Below are positions 877 to 25,709 of a stretch of DNA of 25,767 nucleotides, in pieces; within the stretch, counting starts at the first letter, position 1, and each line of letters starts with the position of its first letter. Both the position numbers and the translations under genes were made by a program. Source of the DNA: a virus; IMG/VR virus record IMGVR_UViG_3300032167_000022; one strand, 5' to 3'. The notes under the pieces were generated by a model. The model made no database searches, had not been told where the DNA came from, and saw only the letters and a list, made by a program, of their open reading frames with translations.

Positions 877-905
877 ATTATATCATATTTTTTATATAAA
901 ATCAA
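877..905 (-). promoter_or_regulatory. sigma70-type promoter cassette (TTGATT-17-TGaTATAAT) upstream of the peptidase gene
   Basis: Reverse complement reads ttgatt tttatataaaaaatatga tataat; member of the repeated promoter family. Confidence 0.55.
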
Positions 906-1709
906 TTAATTTTCTTTCATTTTCTCTATATCCATATTCACTTTAACATTATGAATTTTTTTAACCAATTCTGCGTATTTAAACACAGTTTCACAATGAT
1001 GACAAGTATTATGCGACATACAGCGCTGGCCGCAATTCATTCTTCTAATTGCCAAGTCTTCTGGAATTAATCTATTATCAATATTAAAGTTTAAATTTGT
1101 AAATAAAAGATTTAAATTTCCAGGATATGATTCATTGTCTTTATAAATGTGGAATAATGTAGCTTCTTTTTCTATATCATCTCGTGTAAAAAATTCTAAA
1201 GTATCAACATATTTTTCATAATTCTTTACATCTTCTGGGCGTATCCAACTGCCATAAATACCATTTTCTTTTGGAATATAACTATCATAAGCAATGTTAG
1301 CAAATATTCTAATTGGGATATCAGTAATCTTTTTTACATTTTCCAAATCAAAAGATAATGGCGCCTCAAGGATAATATAGCACGGTTTTTGTGCTATTAA
1401 GCTACGCAATTCATAATAAGTAAATACAGGATAATCCCAATAGAAAGGAATATTGTAATTGCGGCAATATTCTGCTAAATACATATCTTTAATTGCTAAC
1501 TTAAAATTAGCAGTGTCCGCATATTTTTGGAATAATGACCATTCACAATCTCTATTGGAACAATTTTTTGGAATTTCTAATATAAAAGATTTATCTGGAT
1601 AATCTTCAATATAATTCTTTAATCTTGCGATGTCATTTAATCTTACTTTAATTTCATCGGCTTTTTCTAAAACCTGTCTTGACTATCTATTGGAAATACA
1701 ATATTTCAT
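906..1709 (-). CDS. hypothetical protein with C-terminal Cys/His cluster; in-frame TAG at codon 9 (1683-1685)
   Basis: ATG at 1709 has a strong RBS (GGAGAGTGAG). Reading MKYCISNR-TAG-SRQVLEKADEIKV... continues in the same frame into the listed ORF 906..1484. The downstream ATG at 1484 has no SD. The C-terminus carries CGQRCMSHNTCHHCE. Confidence 0.5.
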
Positions 1710-1731
1710 AGTTCTCACTCTCCTTTATTAT

Positions 1732-1760
1732 ATTATACACTATATTTTTCTTTTTGTCAA
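1732..1760 (-). promoter_or_regulatory. promoter cassette TTGACA-17-TATAAT
   Basis: tgtcaa at 1755-1760 and attata at 1732-1737 on plus, i.e. a consensus -35/-10 on the minus strand. Confidence 0.65.
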
Positions 1761-1775
1761 ATTTTATTATAAAAC

Positions 1776-1808
1776 AAAAAAGCCCTTGCGGGCTTAATTG
1801 TTTTATTT
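1776..1808. terminator. bidirectional rho-independent terminator
   Basis: Hairpin aagcccttgcgggctt flanked by A-run and T-run; lies 3' of the 1810..2247 gene. Confidence 0.7.
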
Positions 1809-1809
1809 A

Positions 1810-2247
1810 TTACTGCTCAGTGGGAGTTTCGCCTTCAACTGCGATACGATAAGCCATAATACGTCTGGACTTACCATCGCCATCCTTAACAGAAATTTCT
1901 TCCTTCTCAGCAAAACCTGCCTTAACAAGCTGGCTCAGACGATAAGAAACCTTGCTTACAGTAATATCCTCACCTTCAATGCGAGCTGCGATATCTGCGA
2001 TAGCCTCAAACTCGTTAGTAAGAACTTCCTTAATTACCGCAGTCAGCGGGTCCTCAGTCTTCTTCTTTGCCGCGGTCTCCTTAGCCTTGGCAGCCTTCTT
2101 ATCAAGCAACGCAATCTCGTTATCGCAGAATTCAACTACCATTTCATCGGTTACACCCTCTGCGAAATCCTCAATGTGCATGTTGCCATCCAGAGCCATA
2201 GCCTTGAAAGCCTCAAAGAAATCTCTCTTAACAATCTTCTTTTCCAT
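1810..2247 (-). CDS. winged-helix-like DNA-binding protein (paralog family A, member 1)
   Basis: 145 aa ORF with RBS AAGGT; its C-terminal ...ITVSKVSYRLSQLVKAGFAEKEEI resembles the C-terminal regions of the 15583 and 19693 gene products. GC-richer than the surrounding sequence. Confidence 0.75.
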   Translation of the reverse strand: MEKKIVKRDFFEAFKAMALDGNMHIEDFAEGVTDEMVVEFCDNEIALLDKKAAKAKETAAKKKTEDPLTAVIKEVLTNEFEAIADIAARIEGEDITVSKVSYRLSQLVKAGFAEKEEISVKDGDGKSRRIMAYRIAVEGETPTEQ

Positions 2248-2302
2248 AATTAAATACCTTAACCTTTCATAATTTATATTGTTTTTTTATTTTGTATATA
2301 TA

Positions 2303-2330
2303 TTATATAATATTTTTTTAAAAAAGTCAA
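2303..2330 (-). promoter_or_regulatory. promoter cassette TTGACT-16-TATAAT
   Basis: agtcaa at 2325-2330 and attata at 2303-2308 on plus. Confidence 0.65.
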
Positions 2331-2337
2331 ATATGTT

Positions 2338-3912
2338 TTAATAGTTTACAATAAAATCTTTATTATATTTGATAAATTCTTCTTTATCATCATATCCAAT
2401 TTCATTTAAAACAGCTAAACTCAAATCATCTAATAAAACATATTCAACACTACGCCAATGATTTATTTTCTTCTTATGAATTGTATATTTATCATAACAA
2501 TTATAACAAAGAGTAACATACTGTGCAGTAAGTTTATCATGGTCAATTGCGATTTTTACAACTACCATATTGTCAGAGAAATGACAATCGCCGCATTCAT
2601 CACAACTACAAGTGTTATCATAGCAGCAACTACAAACAATTTCTCCATCTACTTCATACCATTCATCATTTGAGTAAATTGTTTCTCCACAATGACTACA
2701 AATTCTAACATTATTACAGTCATCACAAAGTAAATTGTAATTTTCAGAAAAATGTGCTACATCCTTGCCGCAACACATACAGATTAATTCACCAGAATAG
2801 GAAGTAGTAATATCTGTATCGTGAATATTTTTATTTAAATAAACATAATGCAGACAAGTGTAAAAATCATTATACATATTATTAGTATAAAAATGAAGAT
2901 TTACTCTATGACCAGTTTCCGCAATAATATTATCATCTTTCCATGAACTAAATTGACATTTTTTAGAAGAATATGCGTCTGCCCCAGCAATTTCTTTAAG
3001 CCAATCAAGACAAGTAAAAGTTAATGATTCATTCGCATAAGGATATGGTTTTACACTACAAATCATATTTTCATTAACAATGAAAAGTTCTCTCCACTTT
3101 TTATTAGACCAGAGATATTCATCAGAAGAATAGGTAAATGTCATAGGAGTACTTGCGGCAAGATATGCTACAACTACCATCGGAGAATTCATCATTTCAA
3201 TGGTGCCGCATCTATAATCTCCCTTATTATCCCAGCTCATACAACTTTCCCAATTACTATCATTATCACTCATGGTCATATAATCAAGAGGATGAATAGA
3301 AAGACAAAGCTTTCCTTTAACTTCTTTCTGGTTAAGAATCATAGAGTGCGCAATACGGAATTCTTCATAATTAGGAAGATTATAAGCTGTCGCAATCTTA
3401 CCAAGCATTTTACTAACTTTACAGCCAGGATTCATCTGAATAAATCTTCCATCAGGAGTAGGAATATTAAAGTTTTTATCACCATTCCAAGTATTAACAG
3501 CAAGATTATCAGACCACATCAATTCACGCACAACATCATACTCCTTAAGAGGACAAGTTGTTTCAAAATCAGAATAACGCCATTTATAAAATAATTCATT
3601 AAATGCTTGAGTAAAGTTTTTTATTTCTACAGTAGGATTCTCAAACATTACATTTTCAACTTCTTCAATAAGCATATCATAAGATTTCTCAAATTTAATT
3701 TCTTTTTCAAGAATTAATTTGTTACCAAATTTTTCAAATAGCCATTGTTTATTATGGTTCCAATAACGAAGAAGATGAACCATATCACAAATTTCTTTTA
3801 CTTCATCATCAAAAGCATTTTCCTGAATGCGGAAATACATCATATCAATTTCATTAGTTGTAAGTGATTCGTAAGGATAAGAATTCATATATCTCACACT
3901 TTCTTTTCTCAT
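2338..3912 (-). CDS. large hypothetical protein with C-terminal multi-CxxC region
   Basis: 524 aa ORF with a TAA stop. Its C-terminal third has many CxxC/CC motifs (ICMCCG...CDDCNN...CSHCGE...CSCC...CDECGDCH...CYNCYDKY), suggesting zinc binding. Confidence 0.8.
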   Translation of the reverse strand: MRKESVRYMNSYPYESLTTNEIDMMYFRIQENAFDDEVKEICDMVHLLRYWNHNKQWLFEKFGNKLILEKEIKFEKSYDMLIEEVENVMFENPTVEIKNFTQAFNELFYKWRYSDFETTCPLKEYDVVRELMWSDNLAVNTWNGDKNFNIPTPDGRFIQMNPGCKVSKMLGKIATAYNLPNYEEFRIAHSMILNQKEVKGKLCLSIHPLDYMTMSDNDSNWESCMSWDNKGDYRCGTIEMMNSPMVVVAYLAASTPMTFTYSSDEYLWSNKKWRELFIVNENMICSVKPYPYANESLTFTCLDWLKEIAGADAYSSKKCQFSSWKDDNIIAETGHRVNLHFYTNNMYNDFYTCLHYVYLNKNIHDTDITTSYSGELICMCCGKDVAHFSENYNLLCDDCNNVRICSHCGETIYSNDEWYEVDGEIVCSCCYDNTCSCDECGDCHFSDNMVVVKIAIDHDKLTAQYVTLCYNCYDKYTIHKKKINHWRSVEYVLLDDLSLAVLNEIGYDDKEEFIKYNKDFIVNY

Positions 3913-3930
3913 TTTTTATTTTCTATAAAT

Positions 3931-3959
3931 ATTATATCATATTTTTTTATAAAAATCAA
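3931..3959 (-). promoter_or_regulatory. promoter cassette TTGATT-17-TGaTATAAT
   Basis: aatcaa at 3954-3959 and attata at 3931-3936, then tca. Confidence 0.6.
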
Positions 3960-3995
3960 GTAAGCCCTTATGAATTACTCATAAGGGCTTATTTT

Positions 3996-5180
3996 TTAGT
4001 TATTGGAAGGAGGAGTCATTACATTAACAGGAATAGGAGTCCGATTCATCATTGCGAACAAAGGAAGCATATCCTTCATATCATTCTTACCACTCATAAA
4101 CGCATACATAAACATGGGATTATTCGTAAGATTGAAATTACTATTCATCATCATCAGAGGGAATACCTTTTCTACGCTTGCGTCATCATCCATCAGAAGG
4201 AAAGGAAGCATATTACCAAACGGATTGTCTGCGGTTGCGGTGTTATTAAGATTAAACAGCGAGACTACCTGCGTTACGAAATCAAAACCGAACGGCGAGC
4301 GCACAGGCAGAATCATCTTTTCCTCACCGTTGATTACATCAATAACAAGCAGCTTCTTGTTATTTTCAACAGCTTCCTTAACAAACATGGGCTTCCGCTG
4401 ATGAATAATTACTGCGCCAGGAATTACATCCTTAATCGCAACCGGCATCTTCCACATCCACTTGCCGCCATCAAAATTCAGAATATCCACATCCACAATA
4501 TCACCAGTCTGCTGGTTATAAGAAACCCAATTACCAGCAGCATTCTTTACGGCAAGACCATAGAGAGACATACGGACATTATCATTTTCGCAAGAACCAA
4601 AATCAAAATTAAAACCCTTCATCATTGTTTTATTCTCCTTATCATTTTCTTTATCAAGATTATAATTATCTACATCAAGTTTTGTCGCATAAAGATTATC
4701 AATGTCATCTTTAACTACATCAATACGTTTACTCAAACAATCAATTGATTCACTTAAAGATTGTGCGGAAGTTCTATAATTTAGCATTTCATCAGTAGTC
4801 ATTTTCATGCAATAATCAGTTAATTCCCCAAGAGCATTAACAGCTCCACCAGTTATATTAACTTTTTCAGGTTCAGGCATATCTAATTTTATAGTTTTAA
4901 AATATTGGTCAAATAAAAATTCACCAAATGAATTATCATCAATCCTAAAATAATATTCGTCAAGAAAATTTTCTTCATGGACACAAATTTCAGGACCAAG
5001 TAATTCAATATAAATTAAACCTTCAAATTCTGATAAATTACGCCATTTATTATAACCCAATTTATCATACTTTTTATCTTTTACTTCTTTGTTAAAAAGA
5101 GTTAATACAACATTAACCCACTCATTATTTGAAAAACATTCTATCTTATTCTTTTGTGCTACAATAGTTTCATTTGACAT
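3996..5180 (-). CDS. hypothetical protein, Met-rich C-terminus
   Basis: 394 aa ORF with RBS GAGAGGAAGT 7 nt before the ATG and a TAA stop. Confidence 0.8.
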   Translation of the reverse strand: MSNETIVAQKNKIECFSNNEWVNVVLTLFNKEVKDKKYDKLGYNKWRNLSEFEGLIYIELLGPEICVHEENFLDEYYFRIDDNSFGEFLFDQYFKTIKLDMPEPEKVNITGGAVNALGELTDYCMKMTTDEMLNYRTSAQSLSESIDCLSKRIDVVKDDIDNLYATKLDVDNYNLDKENDKENKTMMKGFNFDFGSCENDNVRMSLYGLAVKNAAGNWVSYNQQTGDIVDVDILNFDGGKWMWKMPVAIKDVIPGAVIIHQRKPMFVKEAVENNKKLLVIDVINGEEKMILPVRSPFGFDFVTQVVSLFNLNNTATADNPFGNMLPFLLMDDDASVEKVFPLMMMNSNFNLTNNPMFMYAFMSGKNDMKDMLPLFAMMNRTPIPVNVMTPPSNN

Positions 5181-5335
5181 CGCTTACTTACTTCCTCTCT
5201 AATATAGTCCAATTCAGCAGGAGAAAAATCTTCTATAATACTATAAGTACCATTTTCAATTATCTGCTGAACGACCATATCTAATTTTTCTTTTCTATCC
5301 ATCAAAAAAAGAGGCAAATATAAATTATCAAACAT
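5159..5335 (-). CDS. possible small coupled ORF (about 58 aa)
   Basis: Its ATG lies 2 nt after the TAA of the upstream gene (TAAtATG). It reads MFDNLYLPLFLMDRKEKLDMVVQQIIENGTYSIIEDFSPAELDYIREEVSKRCQMKLL and ends at a TAG overlapping the next gene start. It has no SD of its own. Confidence 0.3.
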   Translation of the reverse strand: MFDNLYLPLFLMDRKEKLDMVVQQIIENGTYSIIEDFSPAELDYIREEVSKRCQMKLL

Positions 5336-5336
5336 A

Positions 5337-5606
5337 TTATTTAGTTATATCAACGAGAATAAAATCTCTATCATAAAATGTATCTTCAAGAAAATTATAA
5401 ATTATACGTCTTTGTTCATTATCATAATTTTCCGTATAAAGACTTGTAATTGTGTTTTCATCAAACCATAACTGTTTATAAGGTGCTCTTGGGTCATCAA
5501 GATGGAAATCAAACAATTTACAAATATCTACTTCAAGATTACACTGAATTTTTAATTCTTTTTCAAGCGTACTCAAATTGACTACAAATTCAGTATGATA
5601 TTCCAT
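5337..5606 (-). CDS. hypothetical protein
   Basis: 89 aa ORF, first gene after the promoter at 5641; TAA stop. Confidence 0.7.
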   Translation of the reverse strand: MEYHTEFVVNLSTLEKELKIQCNLEVDICKLFDFHLDDPRAPYKQLWFDENTITSLYTENYDNEQRRIIYNFLEDTFYDRDFILVDITK

Positions 5607-5640
5607 ATTTTATTTTCTCCTCTTTTGATTTTCTATATAT

Positions 5641-5669
5641 ATTATATCATATTTTTTATAAAAAATCAA
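5641..5669 (-). promoter_or_regulatory. promoter cassette TTGATT-17-TGaTATAAT
   Basis: aatcaa at 5664-5669 and attata at 5641-5646, then tca. Confidence 0.6.
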
Positions 5670-5670
5670 A

Positions 5671-6411
5671 TTAAGATTTTATTTCAGAACATCTTGTAAG
5701 AATTGTCTGCGGCTTTCCTTTATAGGTAGAATGCGCTTTTACTGTTCCGCGGATTTTTCTAATTGTACCCGGTTCCCAGCTCTTCGCATTAGTCATCCAA
5801 GTATATTGATTGCCGCAAGCATCTTCAAAAGTATGTAATGTACCCACACCATAACTGTTTTCAAGTTTAATAGCACTAATTACAGTAAGAGTAAGGTCTA
5901 ATCTTTCTCCAATAGAACCAACATGTGAGGATGAATTGTCTGCGGGGTAGCGTGCCGCATCTACTGCCGCAATTACTTTGTCTTCTGGCTTTAATTTTCC
6001 ATCATCATTACCAACTTCTTCCCATTTTAATTTAATGACATTAACTTCTGTTGGAAGATTATCGGGGAGAGTTTCAGTGCCCGGAAAATACCACCCCCAA
6101 AAACGGGTACATCTGCGGCAATACATACGAAACCAATCAAAAAGCTCATCTTCCTCATTAATATCTTTATCAAAGATATAGATAAATCCATTCGCAAATC
6201 CAAGAACATCTTTTTGCGGTTTGTAATAAATATCATGAACTTTTACAGTTTCTTTCTCTTCTGGATAAAGTTTATAATATTCATCTTCTGAATACCAGCG
6301 CACTTGTCGTTCGGTCTTTGTTTTAGGATTGCGCACGCGCACATACATCTTTTTACTGATTTCATAAGGTTCGCATAAAATTTCAAAATCTTTAAAACTT
6401 TTAGCCACCAT
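5671..6411 (-). CDS. hypothetical protein
   Basis: 246 aa ORF; its start overlaps the upstream stop (TAATG). Confidence 0.8.
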   Translation of the reverse strand: MVAKSFKDFEILCEPYEISKKMYVRVRNPKTKTERQVRWYSEDEYYKLYPEEKETVKVHDIYYKPQKDVLGFANGFIYIFDKDINEEDELFDWFRMYCRRCTRFWGWYFPGTETLPDNLPTEVNVIKLKWEEVGNDDGKLKPEDKVIAAVDAARYPADNSSSHVGSIGERLDLTLTVISAIKLENSYGVGTLHTFEDACGNQYTWMTNAKSWEPGTIRKIRGTVKAHSTYKGKPQTILTRCSEIKS

Positions 6412-6704: not shown

Positions 6705-6717
6705 ATTATTCTCCTTT

Positions 6718-20226: not shown

Positions 20227-20333
20227 TGGAGGCAGTGGTAGGAGTTGAACCTACGTTTTCCAATGGCGAACGTTTCCATTTGTTGTATCTCAAGCCATCT
20301 TTATGGAAATAGAGCCGCTTCTATCTCACTGCC
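20227..20333 (-). tRNA. tRNA-like element, atypical length (104 nt plus encoded CCA)
   Basis: The minus strand reads GGCAGTG...atag-aagcggct-ctat...gtagg-TTCAACT-cctac-CACTGCC-t-CCA. It has a 7-bp acceptor stem, a D-arm with GG, and a canonical T-arm and loop. The anticodon region carries about 16 extra nt (a 23-nt loop between tccat and atgga), and no clean anticodon was identified. Confidence 0.4.
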
Positions 20334-20373
20334 ATATTATCGGGGAGGATTTGTTCCTCTCTTCTGTATATAT

Positions 20374-20402
20374 ATTATATCATACTTTTGCGGTTTTGTC
20401 AA
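20374..20402 (-). promoter_or_regulatory. promoter cassette TTGACA-17-TGaTATAAT driving the tRNA-like element
   Basis: tgtcaa at 20397-20402 and attata at 20374-20379. The tRNA-like 5' end lies about 35 nt downstream of the predicted transcription start. Confidence 0.75.
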
Positions 20403-20451
20403 GGGGTTTTGCGAAATTTCTTAAAGTTTTTTTTGCGGTAGTCATGGGGGA

Positions 20452-21156
20452 TTAATTCCCCCATAACTCTTTCTGCATTGCCTTGTGTTGTCTGAAACAG
20501 TACGCCATTATCTGCGCTTCAATTTCCACATCTTCAAGCCCTGTATGATTTTCAACAAAATCATTATTGCGGGAAATGAATCTGTAAAGATTTTCCGCTG
20601 TCATGGAAAGTCTGCCAGTTTTTGTCAGATAACCATGTTCTTCACAAAATGCGCGGTAGGTGGGCATCTTTCCGATTACACTTTGCGCCATCTTCATACT
20701 GTCCCAAATTGTAATTCCATAAGGGAGAAAATAGCGGTACTTGCTTTTTGTAGTCCAGCGCTCTGTGCTGTTTAGGCTGTTGTAGTCAAAACGGGCGTTA
20801 TGCGCGCAAATTGTATCAACTGCGAAATCTGCGATATCATTCAGCAGAGCCGAGCGCATTTGATAGGTATTAGCCACAATGCGCCTACCCGCTTCAATGT
20901 CTGCGAGATACTGCGGGATTTTATTTGCGTAGTATGCCGACTTCATCAGTTCAGCTTCATGGAAGAAAATATCAGAATTTACAAAACTCTTTTTGCGGTA
21001 GATGTTTCCATGCTTATCAGTTACCGCCCACCCAAGGTCATACACAAGTGTACTACTTGTGTCAAGCTGTCCTCTTTCATCGCGGAAGGTGTTTGCGGTT
21101 TCCGTGTCAAGCACGATAATGTAATGTCTGCGGCGGTCAATCTTTTCTGTGTTCAT
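20452..21156 (-). CDS. DEDDh-family 3'-5' exonuclease (DnaQ/epsilon-like)
   Basis: Exo I YIIVLDTETAN, Exo II CAHNARFDYNSL, Exo III HTGLEDVEIEAQIM. 234 aa. The TAA stop sits in the loop of hairpin atggggg-attaatt-cccccat. Confidence 0.8.
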   Translation of the reverse strand: MNTEKIDRRRHYIIVLDTETANTFRDERGQLDTSSTLVYDLGWAVTDKHGNIYRKKSFVNSDIFFHEAELMKSAYYANKIPQYLADIEAGRRIVANTYQMRSALLNDIADFAVDTICAHNARFDYNSLNSTERWTTKSKYRYFLPYGITIWDSMKMAQSVIGKMPTYRAFCEEHGYLTKTGRLSMTAENLYRFISRNNDFVENHTGLEDVEIEAQIMAYCFRQHKAMQKELWGN

Positions 21157-21198
21157 TGGTCTATCTCTCTTTCTACCCCCTGTATCGGGGGTATATAT

Positions 21199-21227
21199 AT
21201 TATATCATACTTTGAGCGATTTGTCAA
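21199..21227 (-). promoter_or_regulatory. promoter cassette TTGACA-17-TGaTATAAT with leader hairpin cccccgatacaggggg
   Basis: tgtcaa at 21222-21227 and attata at 21199-21204. Confidence 0.75.
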
Positions 21228-21256
21228 GGGGTTTTGCGAAAGTTTTTTAAAGATTT

Positions 21257-21460
21257 TTAGCGGGGGAAAAAGCAAGCACTTCTGTCATTCCATACTACTA
21301 TGTATTTGTCGCCATTGACTTCTTCTACTCTGTGAAGGGTGGCTTCGTAGAAACCGCATTCCATGAGCGCGTTATACTCATCACGGGCATCATTGAAATT
21401 ATTGAATTGGGTTACTACGCCCTCAATTTCTACCTCAAAATAAATTTTAGTGTTAGTCAT
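21257..21460 (-). CDS. hypothetical protein
   Basis: The true start is the ATG at 21460 (RBS AGAGAGG; MTNTKIYFEVEIEG...). The track's longer version translates the promoter. Confidence 0.65.
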   Translation of the reverse strand: MTNTKIYFEVEIEGVVTQFNNFNDARDEYNALMECGFYEATLHRVEEVNGDKYIVVWNDRSACFFPR

Positions 21461-21494
21461 TTGTGATGTACCTCTCTTTCTTTTCTGTATATAT

Positions 21495-21523
21495 ATTATA
21501 CCACATATCAAGCCAAAAGTCAA
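21495..21523 (-). promoter_or_regulatory. promoter cassette TTGACT-17-TGgTATAAT
   Basis: agtcaa at 21518-21523 and attata at 21495-21500. Confidence 0.7.
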
Positions 21524-21632
21524 TAGGTTTTTGAAAAAAATCTTTCGTCAAATTGCACAAACATTTTGGGAAAATTTCCCTTCACAATTTGTTTACAAAA
21601 TGCTTACAAAAAAGTATTGAAATTCACAATTT

Positions 21633-21670
21633 GTTCAAAAACCGGCCGCTTGGAGCGCGGGCGGCCGGCC
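21633..21670 (-). terminator. rho-independent terminator
   Basis: Hairpin ccggccgc-ttggagcgcgg-gcggccgg; the reverse complement is followed by tttttg. Confidence 0.6.
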
Positions 21671-21767
21671 CAAAAGTCAAGTCAAAATTTGTAAATAAAA
21701 TGAAAACAAAATATGAATTGAAATGAAAAAATGAATCCAAAAAATGGAAACAAAAATTGAAATTGAA

Positions 21768-21796
21768 ATAAAAAACCGCCCAAAGGCGGCTTTTAT
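21768..21796. terminator. bidirectional rho-independent terminator
   Basis: aaaaaaccgcccaaaggcggctttta. Confidence 0.75.
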
Positions 21797-22069
21797 TTAA
21801 TAGGTGATACGAATATTATTCAATCTATCTGTATATGATTCTGGACCATCTTCTTCAAACAGTCTTGTTCCGTTAGCAACTCTTCCACGTTGAACGCAGA
21901 AGAAAATACCATCTTTTCTTGCCCGAGAAATTAAATCATTAAATTCTTCCATATAATTATCGCGTGTAATTTCTTTTTTTCTTCTTTCAATGATAAGTTT
22001 AAGCTCTTCGGCGGTGACTTCCATCAGAACAACATTCTCTTCAACTTCATTAAATCTACCAGTAGGCAT
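21797..22069 (-). CDS. hypothetical protein
   Basis: 90 aa ORF. Confidence 0.7.
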   Translation of the reverse strand: MPTGRFNEVEENVVLMEVTAEELKLIIERRKKEITRDNYMEEFNDLISRARKDGIFFCVQRGRVANGTRLFEEDGPESYTDRLNNIRITY

Positions 22070-22124
22070 TTTGTTTTCTCTCTTTCTTCCGTTCTTTTGG
22101 GCTTCCGGATTTCCTCTGTATATA

Positions 22125-22153
22125 TATTATATCATACTTTGCGGTGTTTGTCA
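22125..22153 (-). promoter_or_regulatory. promoter cassette TTGACA-17-TGaTATAAT
   Basis: tgtcaa at 22148-22153 and attata at 22125-22130. Leader cttccgttcttttgggcttccggatttcc is shared with the promoter at 24362. Confidence 0.75.
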
Positions 22154-22186
22154 AGAGGTTTTGCGAAATTTTTTGAAAAAAATTTT

Positions 22187-22378
22187 TTATGCCAAGAATT
22201 CACCAGTTTGAATATAATGCCAGATAGCTTCTATGCAAGTATGCTCAAAATCATCTATGCGTTTTTCATCATGGCATTTATCATTTAATGGACATTCTTC
22301 ACATTTAAAAATTGGGATATCAATAGATTTTGGGTCAATAATTGCTTGAAAACGTTTAAACTGAATATTTTCTTCCAT
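22187..22378 (-). CDS. small CxxC protein
   Basis: 63 aa with RBS AGGAAAG; contains CEECPLNDKCHDEKRIDDFEHTC. Confidence 0.55.
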   Translation of the reverse strand: MEENIQFKRFQAIIDPKSIDIPIFKCEECPLNDKCHDEKRIDDFEHTCIEAIWHYIQTGEFLA

Positions 22379-22395
22379 GCTATTTCTTTCCTGTA

Positions 22396-22893
22396 TTAAA
22401 ACTTTTTTGAATTTACCTGTATGCGCTCAATCCAAGAGCGCATACAGTAATTCAAGAATATCAATCGCGGTCGGGTCAAACGCTTCGCCCATGTGCCAGC
22501 CCTTGCGAACCTTTTCATTGTCATCAAAGAGCAAGCGGTTTCGTCCTCTTCAAGGTATCTGCGGATGCTGTCAGCCTTAGTCGCGCCATACTTTACACCG
22601 TGGAAGTGAGTGTAAGGAATGCCGAGGGCTTCAAGCCATTCTCGCTTCGCTTCGCGTACCGCTTCATCATACTCGGGAGTGCTTTCCTTTGACAGCCAAG
22701 TGATAATGCGAATTTCAACGCCGTTATCAATCAGCGTATTCAGGATGCAAGCAAGCTCCTCTTCATCCCACATACATTCTGCTTCCCGATACGGGGCAGG
22801 GTCAAACGCACGAAGCTGTTCAAGCCAGTTGGGCACGTTGTAAAGGTCTGCGAGGGTGCCGTCCATGTCAAAGCAAATCATCTTAGGTAACAT
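22396..22893 (-). pseudogene. HAD-superfamily 5'(3')-deoxyribonucleotidase-like gene with apparent -1 frameshift near 22540-22560
   Basis: The start is MLPKMICFDMDGTLADLYNVPNWLEQL (HAD motif I, DxDGT). After ...RRYLEED, the homologous continuation RNRLLFDDNEKVRKGWHMGEAFDP (motif IV, DD) is in another frame, which is closed by a TGA just upstream. The track's M at 22971 translates the promoter. Confidence 0.55.
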
Positions 22894-22942
22894 AGTTTTT
22901 ACTTCCTTTCTCTTGGAACCTCTTGGGTTCCTCTGTATATAT

Positions 22943-22971
22943 ATTATATCACATTTCCGGTCGTTTGTCAA
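22943..22971 (-). promoter_or_regulatory. promoter cassette TTGACA-17-TGaTATAAT
   Basis: tgtcaa at 22966-22971 and attata at 22943-22948. Confidence 0.75.
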
Positions 22972-23015
22972 GAGGTTTTGCGAAATTTTTTAAATTTTTT
23001 TTCGCAAGGTAGAGG

Positions 23016-23192
23016 TCACTTGACCTCTACCACATCCACGATTTCCCATTCTTTGGCAGGATAATCGGTCTCGTTATCAAGGCGATACATACATTCTTTC
23101 TTCGCTTCACCTTTATTACTCGCTTTAACGAAGTATTCATCCCATCCAAATTTCTTGTGATAAACAGAGCAAGCATAAGTTTTCATCTCCAT
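23016..23192 (-). CDS. small hypothetical protein (58 aa)
   Basis: RBS AAAGAAAGGA. Reads MEMKTYACSVYHKKFGWDEYFVKASNKGEAKKECMYRLDNETDYPAKEWEIVDVVEVK; TGA stop inside the palindrome ggtagaggtca-ct-tgacctctacc. Confidence 0.45.
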   Translation of the reverse strand: MEMKTYACSVYHKKFGWDEYFVKASNKGEAKKECMYRLDNETDYPAKEWEIVDVVEVK

Positions 23193-23238
23193 GTGTCCTT
23201 TCTTTGGTCGCCTATTGGCTTTCCTTTACTGTATATAT

Positions 23239-23267
23239 ATTATATCATATTTTAATAAAAATGTCAA
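23239..23267 (-). promoter_or_regulatory. promoter cassette TTGACA-17-TGaTATAAT
   Basis: tgtcaa at 23262-23267 and attata at 23239-23244. Confidence 0.7.
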
Positions 23268-23384
23268 TGAATATTCTGTAAATAGATTGTGAAGTTTCTG
23301 TGAACTGGCCTATTGGTAGTTTCAGGAAATGGGAAACATATGCGAATTATCCAGTTTTTGCCATAAAAAATGCGGAATTAGGTG

Positions 23385-23435
23385 GCCATTAGAAATACCG
23401 CTCGTTTCGGGTGGTAAACGCCCGGAAACGAGCGG
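23385..23435 (-). terminator. rho-independent terminator (11-bp stem)
   Basis: ccgctcgtttc...gaaacgagcgg; the reverse complement is followed by tatttctaat. Confidence 0.55.
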
Positions 23436-23454
23436 GCGCCCACAATTGTAAATT

Positions 23455-23545
23455 TTTTAAAAAAATTTTATGAACAAATTGTGAACAAAATATGAACAAA
23501 AATGTATGAACAAATTGTGAACAGAATATGAACAAATTGTTACCA
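23455..23545. repeat. six tandem copies of (T)ATGAACAAA(T)
   Basis: tatgaacaaattgtgaacaaaatatgaacaaaaatgtatgaacaaattgtgaacagaatatgaacaaattg. Confidence 0.65.
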
Positions 23546-23591
23546 AAGCGGCTGGATATTTTTTCCACCCAGCCGCTTTATTTTACATCTG

Positions 23592-23957
23592 TCACATAGG
23601 GATTCTATCAACCGCATCCGCCTGCGCGATTGCTTTTTCAATCAGTGTATCAAGCGCTTTTTCAATTCTCGCAAGCTCTGCTTTGTTCTTGACTATATAA
23701 TGGTCATTCCCTTTACGTTCAACATCAAAGTTGTTTTCAAGAATCAAATGCGCGTTAGCCTCAATTACTCTGCGATATGCGATATTATCGTCGCACTCCC
23801 AATTTTTCATGATTAGGTCTTTGTCTCTGTAAAATACCTCTCTTGCTCTTCGGATAACGTTATTTGTTTCGCCGATTTTAATGACGTAGGTGCCGCGCTT
23901 TTTTTCTTGTAAAGCAAGCACCGTTTTTTCGTTCATCGCATAGTAAACACAGCTCAT
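23592..23957 (-). CDS. GIY-YIG-like nuclease domain protein
   Basis: VYYAM...GTYVIKIGETNNVIRRAREV fits the GIY/YIG plus Arg pattern. 121 aa, TGA stop. Confidence 0.65.
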   Translation of the reverse strand: MSCVYYAMNEKTVLALQEKKRGTYVIKIGETNNVIRRAREVFYRDKDLIMKNWECDDNIAYRRVIEANAHLILENNFDVERKGNDHYIVKNKAELARIEKALDTLIEKAIAQADAVDRIPM

Positions 23958-24003
23958 TTTATTTTACCTCTTTCTTTATTTTTTGTTGGAGTCAATCCCC
24001 GCT

Positions 24004-24123
24004 TTACGCGGGGATTTTTCTGACCAGCTTGCCGTGCTTCATTTCTTCCACCTTAAGCTCGCGCTTGCTGAATCCCTTCACTGCTGTTCTGTAGCCGTCT
24101 GCGAAAATAAACCACCAAAACAT
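24004..24123 (-). CDS. small hydrophobic/basic protein (39 aa)
   Basis: SD AAGGGGGAT. Reads MFWWFIFADGYRTAVKGFSKRELKVEEMKHGKLVRKIPA; its TAA sits in the loop of hairpin atccccgc-tttac-gcggggat. Confidence 0.4.
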   Translation of the reverse strand: MFWWFIFADGYRTAVKGFSKRELKVEEMKHGKLVRKIPA

Positions 24124-24143
24124 CTTTTTTATCCCCCTTTTAT

Positions 24144-24303
24144 TATTCGTGTTCAGCTCTGTCAACGTACTTAACAACTTCAACGGGTACGTCACACATA
24201 ATTGCGATTTCTTCAATGCCGTACAAGTAAACATCGCCGACGCATTCATCAAGCAGGTTTGCAATTTCTACATACTTTTCAAAAGTGATGCTTTCAATAG
24301 TCA
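24144..24303 (-). CDS. small hypothetical protein (53 aa)
   Basis: The ATG at 24303 follows leader ...agagagattaaaaaa. Reads MTIESITFEKYVEIANLLDECVGDVYLYGIEEIAIMCDVPVEVVKYVDRAEHE. Confidence 0.55.
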
Positions 24304-24361
24304 TTTTTTTAATCTCTCTTTCTTCCGTTCTTTGTGGCTTCCGGATTTCCTTTACTGTATC

Positions 24362-24390
24362 TATTATACCACACAATTGCGATTCTGTCA
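24362..24390 (-). promoter_or_regulatory. promoter cassette TTGACA-17-TGgTATAAT
   Basis: tgtcaa at 24385-24390 and attata at 24362-24367. Confidence 0.7.
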
Positions 24391-24508
24391 AGGGGGTTTT
24401 TGAAATTTCTTTAAAAAAAATGTATTTTGTACGTTTTGCACAAAAATGTATAAATATTCATTTTTGTATAATTTGACTAAAAATGTATATTATACATTTT
24501 TGTGCAAT

Positions 24509-24538
24509 TTGACGAACGAACATTTGTTCGCGTATAGT
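24509..24538 (+). promoter_or_regulatory. plus-strand promoter TTGACG-18-TATAGT with a perfect Firmicutes LexA (Cheo) box CGAACATTTGTTCG in the spacer
   Basis: ttgacg at 24509-24514, cgaacatttgttcg at 24517-24530, tatagt at 24533-24538. Confidence 0.5.
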
Positions 24539-24696
24539 TTTGCGATTTTCTGCTTTTACCATTTTCTTCCAGCACTTACAAATTTTCCCATTTACCAGAA
24601 AATGGTAAAAAGACCGTTAAATTCTTAACAAGCGCATCCAGTTTCTTCCATTACCAAATGGTGGATGAATTTCCAAAATTTACCGGGTAGGGAAAA

Positions 24697-24960
24697 CGCG
24701 AAAACTGTTTTTTCCAAAAACTGGAATTTCGTGAAAATTTTAACAATCGCGCGGCCGCCCCTTATTTTAACACTTTATCACTTTACCATACTAAAGCGCG
24801 ACTTCGGGGCCCCGCGACACTTGTCGTACAAAACGGAAGGCTGGCATTGTGAAATTTTTCACAAACACGAAAATCGTCAAAAAACTGTTTTTCACTTTCA
24901 CGCTTTACCATACTAAAGTGTGTGAAATTTTTAACAATCGGCGGGCCGCAGGGGAGAGGG
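24697..24960. repeat. two diverged direct repeats (aaaactgtttttc..., ctttaccatactaaag, gtgaaatttttaacaatcg-GC hairpin)
   Basis: Shared blocks at 24697-24770 and 24870-24960, seen directly. Confidence 0.5.
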
Positions 24961-25270
24961 TTTGTTAACAAAAAATTTACAATTTAAAAATTTACAATTT
25001 GTTTACATTCGGGAGAATTTGTTCACAATTTATTTACAATTTATTTAAAAAAAAATATTGAAATTCACAGTTTGTTCACAAATTCGGGCCCTGGGGCCCG
25101 AGAACAGAGATAATTGTGAACAAATTGTAAATTTTTTGTTAACAATTCATAAATTGTTAACAAAAAATTTACAATTTGTTCACAATTTGTTCACATTCGG
25201 GAAATAAAAAGTTTACAATTTGTTCACAATTTGTTTACAAAAAATTCACAAATTGTTCACAATTTGTGAA
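24960..25270. repeat. dense array (more than 20 copies) of an 11-12-bp repeat ACAATTTGTTCACA / TTGTGAACAA with three TCACAttCGGG punctuations
   Basis: Examples: tttacaatttgtttacattcggg, aatttgttcacaatttatttacaattt, aattgtgaacaaattgtaaat, tttacaatttgttcacaatttgttcacattcggg, ttcacaaattgttcacaatttgtgaac. Confidence 0.7.
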
Positions 25271-25399
25271 CTCCGGCCGCTTGGAACGCGAGCGGCCGGC
25301 TCAAAATCAAGCATATTTTGTAAATAATTTGTAAATTAAAAATGAATTTTTTGTAAACAATTTATGAATTTTTTATTCATAGAAATTTTACAATTTGTT

Positions 25400-25442
25400 C
25401 ATAAATTAAAAATGGTAAATGCTGGAATTACCAGCATTTACC
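25400..25442 (-). terminator. rho-independent terminator with the stop codon in the loop (12-bp stem)
   Basis: ggtaaatgctgg-aatta-ccagcatttacc; the reverse complement is followed by atttttaatttat. Confidence 0.7.
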
Positions 25443-25634
25443 AATCTTTGCGATTAATTTTTTTTGGTAATCTCTACCATGCGCAAACACCCACTTGCTT
25501 TTGATTTTGTGATTTGTTTCATTATAAATATTAGTGCTTCTGATTGCGCTCTCAAGCCATCTGACATTGTTTGCCATAAGCACTTCACCAGTAGTAAGAT
25601 TGTAAGCGGCATGCGGTCTGTTGTTAGTAGTCAT
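25428..25634 (-). CDS. hypothetical protein
   Basis: The true start is the ATG at 25634 (RBS GGAAGT; MTTNNRPHAAYNLTTGEVL...). The track's longer form translates the promoter. Confidence 0.6.
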   Translation of the reverse strand: MTTNNRPHAAYNLTTGEVLMANNVRWLESAIRSTNIYNETNHKIKSKWVFAHGRDYQKKLIAKIGKCW

Positions 25635-25680
25635 TTTATTTACTTCCTTTCTGTGAGGGTTTCTCCCTCTCTCTGTATAT

Positions 25681-25709
25681 ATTATACCACACTTTTGGTT
25701 TTTTGTCAA
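25681..25709 (-). promoter_or_regulatory. promoter cassette TTGACA-17-TGgTATAAT
   Basis: tgtcaa at 25704-25709 and attata at 25681-25686. Confidence 0.7.

Follow-up and report, generated by a model that had tools for sequence, protein, structure and literature searches.

Why does one stretch of phage DNA carry 27 similar promoters that all point the same way? The stretch, here called the window, is the whole 25,767-nucleotide sequence of the IMG/VR record IMGVR_UViG_3300032167_000022 and comes from an uncultured phage of gut or rumen. This phage is placed among the TAG-recoded, Herelle-like phages of Clostridia, with Ruminococcus or Oscillospiraceae as its probable hosts; it is not T4-like. 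TAG appears to be a sense codon in this phage. In-frame TAG codons occur in ORFs of the operon behind the class B cassette at 9747 and at codon 9 of ORF 1709-906. The best explanation overall, to which we give a probability of about 0.7, is that the repeats are host-type promoter cassettes that also act as recombination linkers for small early genes, with the window as part of a large phage's variable ('hyperplastic') early region and the repeats as the early transcription signals of that region.

When the window was searched for exact TTGACA-N17-TATAAT, the minus strand gave 18 sites, from 1732 to 25709, and the plus strand none. Shuffling gives an expectation of 0.03 exact sites, and no shuffle reached 18. 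With up to two mismatches allowed, the minus strand has 42 sites versus 13 on the plus strand. Curation by common spacer and flank gave 27 cassettes: 18 perfect, five with one mismatch (TTGACT) and four with TTGATT. All of them (18 perfect, 9 near-perfect sites) run in the same direction as the genes, the first at 905-877 and the last at 25709-25681, so that the original prediction of about 27 minus-strand promoter copies within 877-25709 was right, with exact limits. The features are as follows, each cassette being named in the text by the first position of its -35.

25655-25754, minus strand: class A cassette (-35 25709-25704, -10 25686-25681, A-tract UP); leader hairpin 25669-25655, -8.0 kcal/mol, z -3.2; drives a 68-aa gene (25634-25428) with terminator 25443-25413
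24363-24436, minus strand: class A cassette, -35 from 24391; weak leader hairpin only; drives three small genes including the T5orf172 gene 23957-23592
23239-23267, minus strand: class B cassette, AT spacer, no UP; orthologue in contig L121 100% identical, including the 40-nt upstream flank
22915-23016, minus strand: class A cassette, -35 from 22971; hairpin 22931-22915, -8.9 kcal/mol; drives a HAD-like gene (frameshifted) and a 63-aa gene
22126-22199, minus strand: class A cassette, -35 from 22154; 90-aa gene, terminator 21794-21771
21495-21568, minus strand: class A-like cassette (TTGACT), -35 from 21523; upstream border of a variable slot
21174-21272, minus strand: class A cassette, -35 from 21227; 5'-terminal hairpin CCCCCGATACAGGGGG at 21193-21174, -13.9 kcal/mol, z -5.0; drives a DnaQ-like exonuclease gene (21156-20452)
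20374-20447, minus strand: class A cassette, -35 from 20402; directly before a tRNA-like RNA without protein ORF; borders the exo|wHTH2 slot on its upstream side
20230-20333, minus strand: tRNA-like gene with acceptor GGCAGTG/CACTGCC, T arm and encoded CCA
20128-20240, minus strand: class A cassette, -35 from 20195; hairpin 20161-20128, -12.6 kcal/mol; drives the paralogous pair wHTH2 (20082-19693) and partner (19661-19305)
19032-19060, minus strand: class B cassette in the repeated intergenic module 19004-19266; 100% conserved in L121
18481-18535, minus strand: unclassed cassette, TTGACT, extended -10; 5'-terminal hairpin 18501-18481, -10.3 kcal/mol; drives two genes, one of 78 aa and one for a membrane protein of 157 aa
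17676-17773, minus strand: class A cassette, -35 from 17728; hairpin CCCCGATACAGGGG at 17693-17676, -10.6 kcal/mol; borders, on the upstream side, a region where two genes are replaced relative to L121
17267-17361, minus strand: class A cassette, -35 from 17316; hairpin 17280-17267, -7.6 kcal/mol; drives an 85-aa gene
16925-17021, minus strand: class A cassette, -35 from 16976; hairpin 16940-16925, -10.9 kcal/mol; UP region and stop codon of the preceding gene overlap; L121 homology resumes 16 nt before the -35
16331-16404, minus strand: class A cassette, first in a stack of three, -35 from 16359; ORF-free transcript of about 70 nt, no terminator
16189-16297, minus strand: second stacked class A cassette, -35 from 16252; hairpin 16210-16189; ORF-free transcript of about 100 nt, which L121 lacks along with one of the two cassettes around it
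16031-16135, minus strand: third stacked class A cassette, -35 from 16090; hairpin 16054-16031, -11.6 kcal/mol; drives wHTH1 (15981-15583), partner (15547-15140) and a T5orf172 gene
14491-14519, minus strand: class B cassette in the repeated intergenic module 14467-14724; 100% conserved in L121
13965-14062, minus strand: class A cassette, -35 from 14017; hairpin CCCCCCAGAGAGGGGGG at 13981-13965, -13.9 kcal/mol; drives three genes, terminator 13118-13091
12590-12618, minus strand: class B cassette (TTGACT); drives a 148-aa gene, terminator 12104-12084
9719-9747, minus strand: class B cassette; drives the operon with TAG-containing ORFs
7342-7370, minus strand: class B cassette (TTGATT), directly past terminator 7401-7372
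5641-5669, minus strand: class B cassette (TTGATT)
3931-3959, minus strand: class B cassette (TTGATT), directly past terminator 3991-3961; drives a 524-aa gene
2302-2330, minus strand: class B cassette (TTGACT, no TG)
1732-1760, minus strand: unclassed perfect TTGACA-17-TATAAT, past terminator 1795-1780; drives ORF 1709-906
877-905, minus strand: class B cassette (TTGATT)

Contrary to the original claim, these cassettes are not of one type. Class A (n = 15, 13989-25709) combines phased A-tracts with AAAACCCC and TTGACA and has an extended -10, and the originally quoted unit aaaactttTcaaaaaCCCC-TTGACA-17-TGaTATAAT is valid for these 15. The ten class B cassettes (-35 starts at 23267, 19060, 14519, 12618, 9747, 7370, 5669, 3959, 2330 and 905) differ; their motif is TTGAct-TTTtTAaAAAAATATGA-TATAAT-ATATATAcAaAA, with an AT-only spacer and without the UP element and CCCC part. 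Cassettes 18535 and 1760 are outside both classes. TGn precedes the -10 in 25 of the 27, and in the consensus and information profile the -35, TGn and -10 are conserved, as are the proximal AAAACCCC and the phased A/T tracts.

The class A core, AAAACCYMTTGACAAA-N9-RTRTGRTATAATA, is present in genomes of Ruminococcus, Oscillospiraceae and other Clostridia, and its degenerate pattern matches at least 120 stretches of these genomes. A tRNA gene starts within 150 nt downstream on the same strand in 43 of 132 host sites, and one host site lies on the leader of ribosomal protein L10. Because the core directly precedes tRNA genes in Clostridia, the class A cassette looks like the host stable-RNA (tRNA) promoter type. 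It differs from the UP promoters of stable RNA (tRNA, rRNA, r-protein) in Clostridia in that the phage has multiplied it about 15-25 times in 16 kb, uses it to drive ORFan protein genes and adds a conserved leader. The array is also found in other phages. The promoter pattern occurs in 106 IMG/VR stretches, many with 3-7 co-oriented copies, and at least five such promoters, nearly always in common orientation, are present at 69 fetched loci, Phass-1 among them. Contig L108 carries nine further cassettes and extends the array 3.3 kb past the window. In more distant relatives the orientation is retained and the gene order is changed.

The proposal that the typical unit is one small gene with a terminator of its own was not borne out: about 13 of the 27 are single-gene units, only about 11 minus-strand terminator-like hairpins exist for all 27 cassettes, and only about five units have both a single gene and its own terminator. 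The three stacked cassettes (16359, 16252 and 16090) do have ORF-free leaders, as predicted, and no RBS-preceded ORF was found between them. The predicted duplications were also confirmed. The region 15580-16123 is 72% identical to 19690-20228 over 558 nt (gene 1 proteins 67% identical, the C-terminal part of gene 2 34%), and the duplication runs on into a 263-nt intergenic module (14467-14724 versus 19004-19266, about 80%). The tRNA-like gene is cargo between two cassettes and is missing in L121 and L123. A 41-nt insertion replaces its anticodon loop, the Rfam tRNA model scores it at 29.4 bits against a gathering score of 29 (E=0.0032), and ARAGORN was negative on it.

Comparison with sister phages revealed what happens at the cassettes. 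The window, L121, L123, L125, L127 and L128 are mosaics whose shared blocks are 84-97% identical. Homology blocks begin at the UP element, 8-51 nt before a -35, and end 5 nt past a -10 or in a leader, and the replacements at 21489-21258 and 17670-16992 have cassette borders. In three slots, a module lies between two cassettes in one genome and a single chimeric cassette is found in another. The exo|wHTH2 slot holds cassette, tRNA-like gene and cassette in the window, cassette, 55-aa ORF and cassette in L127, one cassette in L121 and L123, and an HNH gene with one cassette in L128; the single L121 cassette joins the UP region of 20402 to the spacer and leader of 20195. At 16252|16090, the two cassettes and 100-nt transcript of the window correspond to one L121 cassette with flanks matching both. 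The 21523|exo slot has four states: a 67-aa gene in the window, a 137-aa gene in L121, an ORF-free segment in L123 and an empty slot in L125/L128, whose single cassette has promoter and hairpin from the upstream unit and Shine-Dalgarno (SD) and ATG from the downstream unit. Two-motif versus single chimeric motif is the key evidence in the paper on promoter-early stem-loop (PeSL) cassettes (PMC2839356), and by sequence comparison these slots carry the PeSL signature. In addition, contig L113 switches from the window phage to a different phage, L033, within 41 nt of identity (UP region and -35) at the third stacked cassette (16090), a hybrid that could be an assembly chimera from a low k-mer size.

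The cassettes might instead be promoters only, marking borders merely by filling intergenic space, with the mosaic produced by illegitimate recombination or homing-type nuclease conversion and selection for intact junctions (moron-like accretion). Breakpoints lie in cassettes in 12 of 36 cases against 4.5 expected over all sequence (p=0.001); against non-coding sequence only, the excess in cassette cores is not significant (12/27 versus 8.3, p about 0.1) and that in core plus leader is 17/27 versus 11.7 (p=0.03). Cassettes fill much of the intergenic space and gene-level indels must end there, so the enrichment over the non-coding baseline is weak, and coincidence of breakpoints and cassettes says little by itself. 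The predicted placement of relatives' rearrangement borders at cassettes holds for the block ends and the three chimeric slots, but less so for the statistics. About 10 breakpoints are in other intergenic DNA, AT-rich repeats among them, and about 9 at gene ends. Free-standing nuclease genes in or beside variable slots (two T5orf172 in the window, one HNH in L128, where part of the exonuclease gene 3' end is repeated after the HNH insertion) could drive part of the mosaicism. Because host promoters have the same pattern, cassette conservation in distant phages may also reflect constraint by the host polymerase and not exchange. On the other hand, three independent slots with two versus one chimeric cassette, in exact register and with the crossover inside common sequence, are not what random joining would produce. 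The L113 junction, too, falls within its 41 nt of identity. Moreover, the spacer AATCGC[T/G]CAAAGTA (identical or with one mismatch) occurs in four window cassettes with unrelated cargo, and spacer pairs of high identity account for 7.7% within the window versus 1.0% for host promoters. We therefore regard promoters without a linker role as unlikely.

A strict PeSL, in which the G/C stem-loop is a terminator or attenuator insulating units from upstream transcription, depends on the leader hairpins. Folding of the 41-nt leader segment from 6 nt past the -10, counting hairpins that begin 0-8 nt in, gave a G/C 5'-terminal hairpin in 11 of 27 leaders (-7.6 to -13.9 kcal/mol), as expected from the claim that cassettes run into a leader hairpin. 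PeSL stem-loops are poly-G/poly-C, and in one of five PeSL subclasses they follow the -10 (PMC2839356); the leader hairpins of the window have a G/C clamp and occupy that position, inside the predicted transcript. However, no U-run follows any of the 11, and AGAAAGAGG comes next instead; many class A leaders have the clamped hairpin and then this polypurine SD. The terminator scan flags the leader hairpins on the opposite strand only, with UAUAUAUU after them, 16 cassettes lack the hairpin, and separate canonical terminators exist (e.g., 25443, 21794, 19202, 16670, 14753, 13118 and 12104). The hairpin as PeSL-defining terminator/attenuator was rejected, being within the transcript and without a U-tract, and strict PeSLs are very doubtful. 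Without a U-run, the leader hairpin is more likely an mRNA 5' stabiliser. In B. subtilis, a 5' stem-loop plus ribosome binding and a polypurine tract are both established stabilisers (refs 109, 179 and 180 in the list of PMC3997798). Finally, repeats or indels could be artefacts, namely collapsed or mis-joined repeats of metagenome assemblies, since cassettes are repeats, several contigs stop at a poly-A tract near 25740-25762 and L113 may be a chimera. This is hardly credible: the window recurs at 99.97-100% identity in seven independent contigs from different samples and assemblers, and every variant slot state turns up again in independent assemblies. At exo|wHTH2, the state with one cassette is in L121 and L123 (L124 aligns to the window like L123), and that before the exonuclease gene is in L125 and L128 (L126 has the same gene layout). 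Paralogous cassettes, 60-89% identical over the 76 nt compared (BLAST maximum 96% over 69 nt), are too divergent to collapse.

Host-type promoter cassettes with a linker role can be compared with known systems. PeSLs of the T4-like phages RB49/phi1, PST and nt-1 (Arbiol et al. 2010, PMC2839356; Comeau et al. 2014, PMC4122927) are likewise repeated motifs, about 100 bp long, that comprise an AT-rich part upstream, sigma-70-type -35/-10, poly-G/poly-C stem-loop, SD and ATG. They separate the small ORFans of a variable early region; where one phage has an ORFan between two motifs, its relative has a single chimeric motif, with crossovers in the AT-rich, promoter or SD region. Here, in contrast, the lineage has its relatives in the code-15 Clostridia phage clade and among Enterococcus Schiekvirus-type phages, the host is Gram-positive-type, the promoter is of host tRNA-promoter type with extended -10, the hairpin, present at a minority of cassettes, is a transcribed 5' leader structure, and a second, hairpin-less promoter class stands beside the first. 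Thus the PeSL-like reading survives in large part, for promoter repeats as recombination linkers with chimeric single cassettes, but not for a single promoter class, a terminator hairpin or single-gene units with terminators. As far as PMC6873191 summarises it, the host-takeover module of the Bacillus phage SPO1, a large virulent phage of a Firmicute, is also a cluster of small early genes (genes 37-60, about 26 genes in about 12 kb, mostly of unknown function; Stewart et al. 1998) with many strong sigma-A promoters and strong ribosome-binding sites, organised in operons and not in single-gene cassettes. PHROG and Pfam searches found no homology to SPO1 genes. We know of no description of SPO1 promoters as recombination linkers. 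Lambdoid morons (promoter-gene-terminator units) are similar as autonomously expressed extra genes between existing ones; as far as PMC2839356 treats them, no conserved repeat flanks them and their accretion is regarded as non-homologous, whereas the window phage has conserved repeats as flanks and chimeric single cassettes.

The following model is proposed, in which the timing of the promoters, their strength and their start sites are deduced from the sequence. Class A would copy the host's strongest promoter type (consensus -35, 17-nt spacer, TGn, consensus -10, AT-rich start), with phased A-tracts at about -40 to -68 serving the alpha C-terminal domains, and so the host's own sigma-A polymerase, unmodified, should give a high rate of transcription of every small gene right after infection. 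Transcription would sum along the co-oriented array because few units have terminators, and the stacked cassettes (16062-16404) may be tandem promoters of the wHTH operon. Leader hairpin and polypurine SD would shield mRNA 5' ends from RNase J1/Y-dependent decay, as in Firmicutes. Class B would form another family of sigma-A-type promoters. These cassettes lie where the genome is low in GC, and behind the long intergenic modules; their distinct, very strongly conserved flanks suggest separate regulation. The 60-100 nt cassettes are the longest stretches common to otherwise diverged or unrelated modules, so that general homologous recombination between two of them may delete, insert or replace the intervening module and leave one chimeric cassette; this outcome is seen by comparison, and the mechanism, with any circular intermediate, we infer. 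Insertion, loss and swap of small genes at promoter repeats were previously described only for T4-like phages.

The window carries an array of promoter cassettes on its minus strand. The cassettes match tRNA promoters of Clostridia, relatives of this phage are mosaics, and single cassettes in these relatives are chimeras of two cassettes of the window. A pattern search for exact TTGACA-N16-18-TATAAT found 18 sites in the window, all on the minus strand and all with a 17-nt spacer, against 0.03 expected on average from dinucleotide-preserving shuffles; no perfect site was found on the plus strand. With up to two mismatches, 42 sites were found on the minus strand vs 13 on the plus strand. Curating these sites by their common spacer and flanks gave 27 cassettes, each named here by the start of its -35. 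They run from 905-877 to 25709-25681, and both the count (about 27) and the limits (877-25709) are those of the original prediction. TGn stands ahead of the -10 in 25 of the 27. The window sequence is not an assembly accident because seven contigs from different ENA and JGI samples, found by exact-protein look-up of its DnaQ-like exonuclease (234 aa; gene exo, 21156-20452), are 99.97-100% identical to it over 9.7-15.3 kb.

The cassettes had been described as copies of one unit with a UP element and a CCCC motif. This unit exists as class A, which accounts for 15 of the 27 cassettes, all within 13989-25709. Its consensus is aAAaaa..ttT.AAaAA.TTTt..AAAACCcC TTGACA AAt..c..AAAGT.TGg TATAAT AtATATAc, and the A- and T-tracts 5' of the -35 are phased by ~11 nt. 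A second family, class B, has an AT-only spacer, lacks the UP element and comprises ten cassettes (23267, 19060, 14519, 12618, 9747, 7370, 5669, 3959, 2330 and 905). Its consensus is TTGAct TTTtTAaAAAAATATGA TATAAT ATaTATAcAaAAtAaA, the -35 is often TTGATT, and the upstream part shows no conservation. Cassettes 18535 and 1760 belong to neither class. Class B is the sole class in the low-GC half (~30% GC, positions 1-11000), and its members in the 40% GC half all lie behind long intergenic modules. We also observed that five cassettes with 40 nt upstream (23239-23307, 19032-19100, 14491-14560, 16331-16399 and 18507-18575) are 99-100% identical between the window and L121, a contig of a related phage, while their adjoining genes differ by ~10%. 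This suggests an extra constraint, such as a putative regulator binding site, or recent exchange.

Promoters of the class A type are found in bacteria. The degenerate core AAAACCYMTTGACAAA-N9-RTRTGRTATAATA matched at least 120 stretches in a collection of species-representative bacterial genomes, almost all from Ruminococcus (including R. albus and R. flavefaciens), Oscillospiraceae, Eubacteriales and other Clostridia of the rumen and hindgut. Of 132 bacterial sites, 43 are followed on the same strand by a tRNA gene whose start is no more than 150 nt away, and one site lies on a ribosomal protein L10 leader. This suggests that the phage adopted the promoter architecture of the most heavily transcribed genes of its probable hosts. 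The match to Clostridia stable-RNA promoters supports the predicted recognition by unmodified sigma-A polymerase, and from this promoter mimicry our guess is that the host may be Ruminococcus or a member of the Oscillospiraceae.

About 27 genes of 39-234 aa are packed into 13 kb, with consensus promoters and AGAAAGAGG-type Shine-Dalgarno (SD) sequences. On a 91-kb contig, L108 (ena:ERZ27248370:k141_2926279), the array extends 3.3 kb upstream of the window with nine further cassettes, and beyond it comes low-GC DNA again, with a class B promoter. It had been proposed that most cassettes drive one small gene with its own terminator, and this did not hold: about 13 of the 27 units contain a single gene, only ~11 terminator-like hairpins are present on the minus strand for 27 cassettes, and only ~5 units combine one gene with a terminator. 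Several cassettes, e.g., 16976, directly adjoin the stop codon of the gene before them or overlap it. The predicted stack of three cassettes (16359, 16252 and 16090) was found, with no RBS-preceded ORF and no terminator between them, and is best read as putative tandem promoters feeding the operon of wHTH1. The genes wHTH1 and wHTH2 are the first genes of two duplicated two-gene modules, and this duplication is also real, with 72% nucleotide identity over 558 nt; at the amino acid level, gene 1 is 67% identical and the C-terminal part of gene 2 is 34% identical. It reaches into a 263-nt intergenic module that carries a class B promoter.

For the 19 upper cassettes we folded a 41-nt segment at the start of the predicted transcript, beginning 6 nt downstream of the -10. 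Of the 19, 11 gave hairpins of -7.6 to -13.9 kcal/mol (e.g., CCCCCGATACAGGGGG) that start 0-8 nt into the segment; five cassettes had a weak hairpin and three had none. Over all 27 cassettes these 11 are the only stable stem-loops, and every cassette of the low-GC half lacks one. The hairpins are followed by a polypurine SD, AGAAAGAGG. No U-run follows any of them on the sense strand, and the terminator scan called none of them on the minus strand, only on the opposite one. The missing U-tract, a property read from sequence, rules them out as predicted intrinsic terminators. B. subtilis has precedents for protection of mRNA 5' ends, namely the 5' stem-loop of the aprE leader and a polypurine stabiliser (references 109 and 179 of PMC3997798).

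The pattern that appears decisive for recombination is two cassettes versus one, seen at three slots.

Contents of two slots in the window and in contigs of related phages
exo-wHTH2, window: cassette, tRNA-like gene, cassette
exo-wHTH2, L127: cassette, 55-aa ORF, cassette
exo-wHTH2, L121 and L123: one cassette
exo-wHTH2, L128: HNH endonuclease gene and one cassette
21523-exo, window: 67-aa gene and second cassette
21523-exo, L121: unrelated 137-aa gene and second cassette
21523-exo, L123: 95 nt without ORF and second cassette
21523-exo, L125 and L128: one cassette

The single cassettes are chimeric. At exo-wHTH2, that of L121 has its upstream part from window cassette 20402 and its spacer and leader from 20195. 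At the third slot, 16252-16090, the window pair flanks a 100-nt ORF-free transcript, and the single cassette of L121 has the left flank of 16252 and the right flank of 16090, so that L121 11305-11371 aligns to both. In L125 and L128, the promoter and hairpin of the upstream unit are joined to the SD and ATG of the downstream unit within a shared AGAAAGAGAGA. Every slot state was found again in independent assemblies. The three slots show the configuration of PeSLs (promoter early stem-loops, the T4-type repeat to which the cassettes had been likened), whose key evidence is ORFan192, with two PeSLs in RB49 versus one in phi1 (PMC2839356). Crossovers at PeSLs lie in the AT-rich region, the promoter or the SD region (PMC2839356).

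Gene-content comparison with relatives supported the core of the proposed shuffling at cassettes through these three chimeric slots. The relatives L121, L123, L124, L125, L127 and L128, contigs that encode exonuclease homologues at 85-93% identity, are mosaics with respect to the window: blocks of 84-97% identity are split by unrelated DNA, and gene content differs. Shared blocks typically start 8-51 nt upstream of a -35 and stop 5 nt after the -10 or 13-44 nt into the leader. Cassette cores hold 12 of 36 unique internal breakpoints, a sample that is too small, vs 4.5 expected over all sequence (p=0.001). Within non-coding DNA the figures are 12 of 27 vs 8.3 expected (p about 0.1), or 17 of 27 vs 11.7 when leaders are added to cores (p=0.03). 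The coincidence of breakpoints and cassettes is not decisive alone because this excess over the non-coding expectation is weak. In more distant relatives gene orientation is kept and order is permuted, e.g., HAD-exonuclease here vs exonuclease-HAD in L103-type contigs.

Constraint by the polymerase has to be weighed against exchange. Phages with only ~65% identity between their genes have cassettes that are 90-95% identical. The argument for exchange from this conservation is weakened because host promoters share the same type, and polymerase constraint may explain it. The spacer AATCGC[T/G]CAAAGTA is common to four window cassettes with unrelated cargo and is not required by polymerase contacts. 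A check for concerted evolution gave an ambiguous picture: certain orthologous cassettes of the window and L121 share 99-100% identity, and others resemble paralogues more closely, mostly because of crossovers inside them. Assembly is the other explanation to be weighed, and it bears on contig L113 (ena:ERZ27248306:k141_2151102). L113 equals the window down to cassette 16090 and then is 100% identical to L033 (IMGVR_UViG_3300029305_004519), a different phage. The switch lies at 9630-9670 (window 16122-16082), inside a 41-nt identity that spans the UP region and the -35. L113 could be a genuine recombinant of two phages or else a chimera assembled at low k. At the window end (25740-25767), four independent contigs begin at the A-run 5' of cassette 25709, several end at ~25740-25762, and L108 and L109 read through. 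The window upstream of ~25750 differs from L108, which reflects either a population polymorphism or an assembly break at the poly-A tract.

The array works like PeSLs, and it is not a strict member of that family because its hairpin is not a predicted terminator, only 11 of 27 cassettes have a hairpin and the genome is not T4-like. The likeness to the sigma-70-type promoter of PeSLs lies in the sequence consensus of the 27 sites, 15 of them with phased A/T tracts. In PeSLs a stem-loop, often polyG...polyC in a ~100-bp motif, acts as terminator or attenuator; the cassette hairpins, weak where not among the 11 at five further cassettes, do not look like one by sequence. PeSLs accompany ORFans in a hyperplastic region, and here too genes are mostly of unknown function and variable in content. 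A module between two motifs vs a single chimeric motif is found at exo-wHTH2, 16252-16090 and 21523-exo. In PeSLs, recombination between motifs also yields encapsidated mini-circles. By protein, the phage is closest to Enterococcus EF1-type phages and Phass-1 and not to Tevenvirinae-type genomes. The host-takeover module of SPO1, with ~26 small early genes, strong promoters and RBSs (PMC6873191), is functionally similar, as dense small, putatively early genes with strong predicted sigma-A promoters and RBSs are present here; Pfam and PHROG scans of window proteins detected no homology to SPO1 gp37-60. Further traits of the SPO1 module are its place in a terminal redundancy and products that shut off host functions. 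Unlike morons, the array has conserved flanking repeats. Integrons use a site-specific recombinase and attC, whereas the repeats here are promoters and not imperfect palindromic attC sites, and the same scans found no integrase or recombinase domain in the window proteins scanned. In the literature searched, PeSLs are cited only in papers on T4-like phages, cyanophages, jumbo phages, Vibrio phages and haloarchaeal viruses, and the Phass-1 paper does not mention promoters (PMC10607447).

Neither half of the window had a DNA match by Megablast among 50,697 phage records. Among 20 proteins scanned, Pfam gave no family at the curated cutoff except T5orf172 (two genes), PHROG, except for the DnaQ-like exonuclease, matched almost exclusively families of unknown function, and weak HAD and HTH matches were seen. 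By tblastn, the exonuclease is 40% identical to that of Enterococcus EF1/H1-type phages and 29% to that of Phage Phass-1, which NCBI files under 'Caudoviricetes code 15 clade'; according to its description, EF1 and an Enterocloster phage share a wider group with Phass-1, and the hosts are predicted to be Clostridia (PMC10607447). When IMG/VR and a metagenome collection were scanned with a protein pattern, only distant exonuclease relatives came up, 24-55% identical, and the family has >6,500 members at E <= 1e-20.

The window shows a sharp split in composition: 13000-25767 has ~40% GC and the standard code, and both sides (1-11000; L108 1-1900) have ~30% GC, with class B promoters and TAG-bearing ORFs. 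The window is not a chimera of two genomes because L062, L088, L103 and L100 each hold homologues from both halves on one contig. In the low-GC half, otherwise clean minus-strand ORFs are broken only by TAG, with five TAGs in four ORFs.

TAG-bearing ORFs
9258-8791, minus strand: ORF with two TAGs
8798-8457, minus strand: ORF with TAG
8226-7951, minus strand: ORF with TAG
1709-906, minus strand: ORF with TAG at codon 9

The L088 homologue of ORF 1709-906 aligns from residue 12, covering 12-75, and no ATG, GTG or TTG occurs between the codon-9 TAG and residue 76. This TAG must be read through because the homology precedes any possible start codon. Within the 40% GC array, only 1 of ~27 genes ends in TAG. 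The pattern is consistent with recoding of TAG to an amino acid (code 15), as in Phass-1, which is distantly related. The HNH gene of L128 also has an in-frame TAG (MLKDI*GYENRY; about 2042-2050).

The tRNA-like gene (20230-20333, minus strand) lies directly behind cassette 20402 and is missing from L121 and L123. Its features are a 7-bp acceptor stem, D and T arms (the latter GTAGG-TTCAACT-CCTAC), U as the discriminator and a CCA that is encoded, and its anticodon loop is replaced by a 41-nt insertion. Rfam scores it as tRNA at 29.4 bits vs a gathering score of 29, and it was found only by Rfam at an E-value threshold: ARAGORN and Rfam at the gathering threshold gave no matches in the whole window, and ARAGORN with relaxed and intron options still missed it. 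Scans of IMG/VR and of GTDB genomes for its exact 3' end gave no match. It was rejected as an amber suppressor because no plausible anticodon loop contains CUA.

The array contains two free-standing T5orf172 (GIY-YIG-related) genes (15082-14735 and 23957-23592), one of them inserted behind the first copy of the duplicated module. In L128, an I-HmuI-like HNH/NUMOD gene (2042-2563) occupies the exo-wHTH2 slot, and behind it comes a second copy of the 3' end of the exonuclease gene. The T5orf172 and HNH genes are possible homing-type elements that add to the mosaicism. The HAD-like phosphatase gene (22893-22396) has a frameshift near 22535 relative to L121, L125 and L047 (...EEDETAWLFDDNEK... to ...EEDETACSLMTMKRF...), with the DD motif out of the main frame. 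This is a pseudogene or a programmed shift and not a random error, because all seven identical contigs carry it.

Long non-coding stretches contain arrays of 11-bp periodic motifs (TTCACAATTTG / TTTACAATTTG), with at least 14 copies in both orientations.

Arrays of 11-bp motifs (both orientations)
24960-25410: array
23420-23545: shorter array
21560-21760: shorter array
19100-19290: shorter array
16400-16640: shorter array
14540-14720: shorter array
12620-13090: shorter array

Each array is accompanied by a G+C-rich hairpin (e.g., GCCGGCCGCTCGCGTTCCAAGCGGCCGG), and a perfect 36-nt inverted repeat lies at 25112-25147 / 25152-25187. The arrays look like candidate protein binding sites on one helical face or origin-like iterons. 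Window 25255-23307 is not present in L121. Another unusual region is an AT-rich island (9760-12100) with 27% GC, positive GC skew, the opposite transcription direction, apparent ORF debris and repeated boxes, ACTAACTAT(T/G)AAAAATTACC, at 9760-10000 and 10700-10790. L108 and L110 have a minus-oriented gene with a faint HTH_11 match at this place.

ORFs of the AT-rich island
10902-11123, plus strand: ORF
11225-11536, plus strand: ORF
11533-11733, plus strand: ORF

In summary, the observation behind the original prediction was confirmed, and its interpretation stands in its core, with corrections to the classes, the role of the hairpin, the unit structure and the breakpoint excess. We propose that host sigma-A polymerase would transcribe the array at a high level as immediate-early genes, and read-through would add up along the co-oriented cassettes. 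The terminal hairpin and strong SD may protect mRNA 5' ends, by analogy with B. subtilis. General homologous recombination between cassettes would lead to gain, loss and replacement of modules.

A wider reading, which we find rather doubtful, is that the cassettes support a clade-wide, recombinase-free gene-exchange network that includes promoter capture and code-timed expression. A promoter captured from a host tRNA locus would have multiplied into a universal linker, with one cassette still directly 5' of a tRNA-like gene. This linker would be common to thousands of related Clostridia phages that are otherwise <70% identical, and single ORFan, sRNA and tRNA-like modules would pass between co-infecting phages, the L113 hybrid being one such event caught. 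Before suppression sets in, nothing in a 30% GC, TAG-recoded genome except this ~16.5-kb standard-code array of 40% GC would be expressible, so promoter class and genetic code would jointly set the infection timetable.

Promoter mimicry may be used for host prediction (Ruminococcus or Oscillospiraceae), and the cassettes offer a simple DNA motif to locate early, variable regions of these phages in metagenomes. The compact Clostridia promoters, predicted to be very strong, and their 5' leaders are possible expression parts. PeSL-type promoter-linker shuffling was previously documented only in T4-like phages of Gram-negative bacteria, and the same logic is now seen in an unrelated and abundant clade of uncultured Clostridia phages from gut and rumen. 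Strong early promoters serving as portable homology may thus be a general route to renewed anti-host gene sets in virulent phages.
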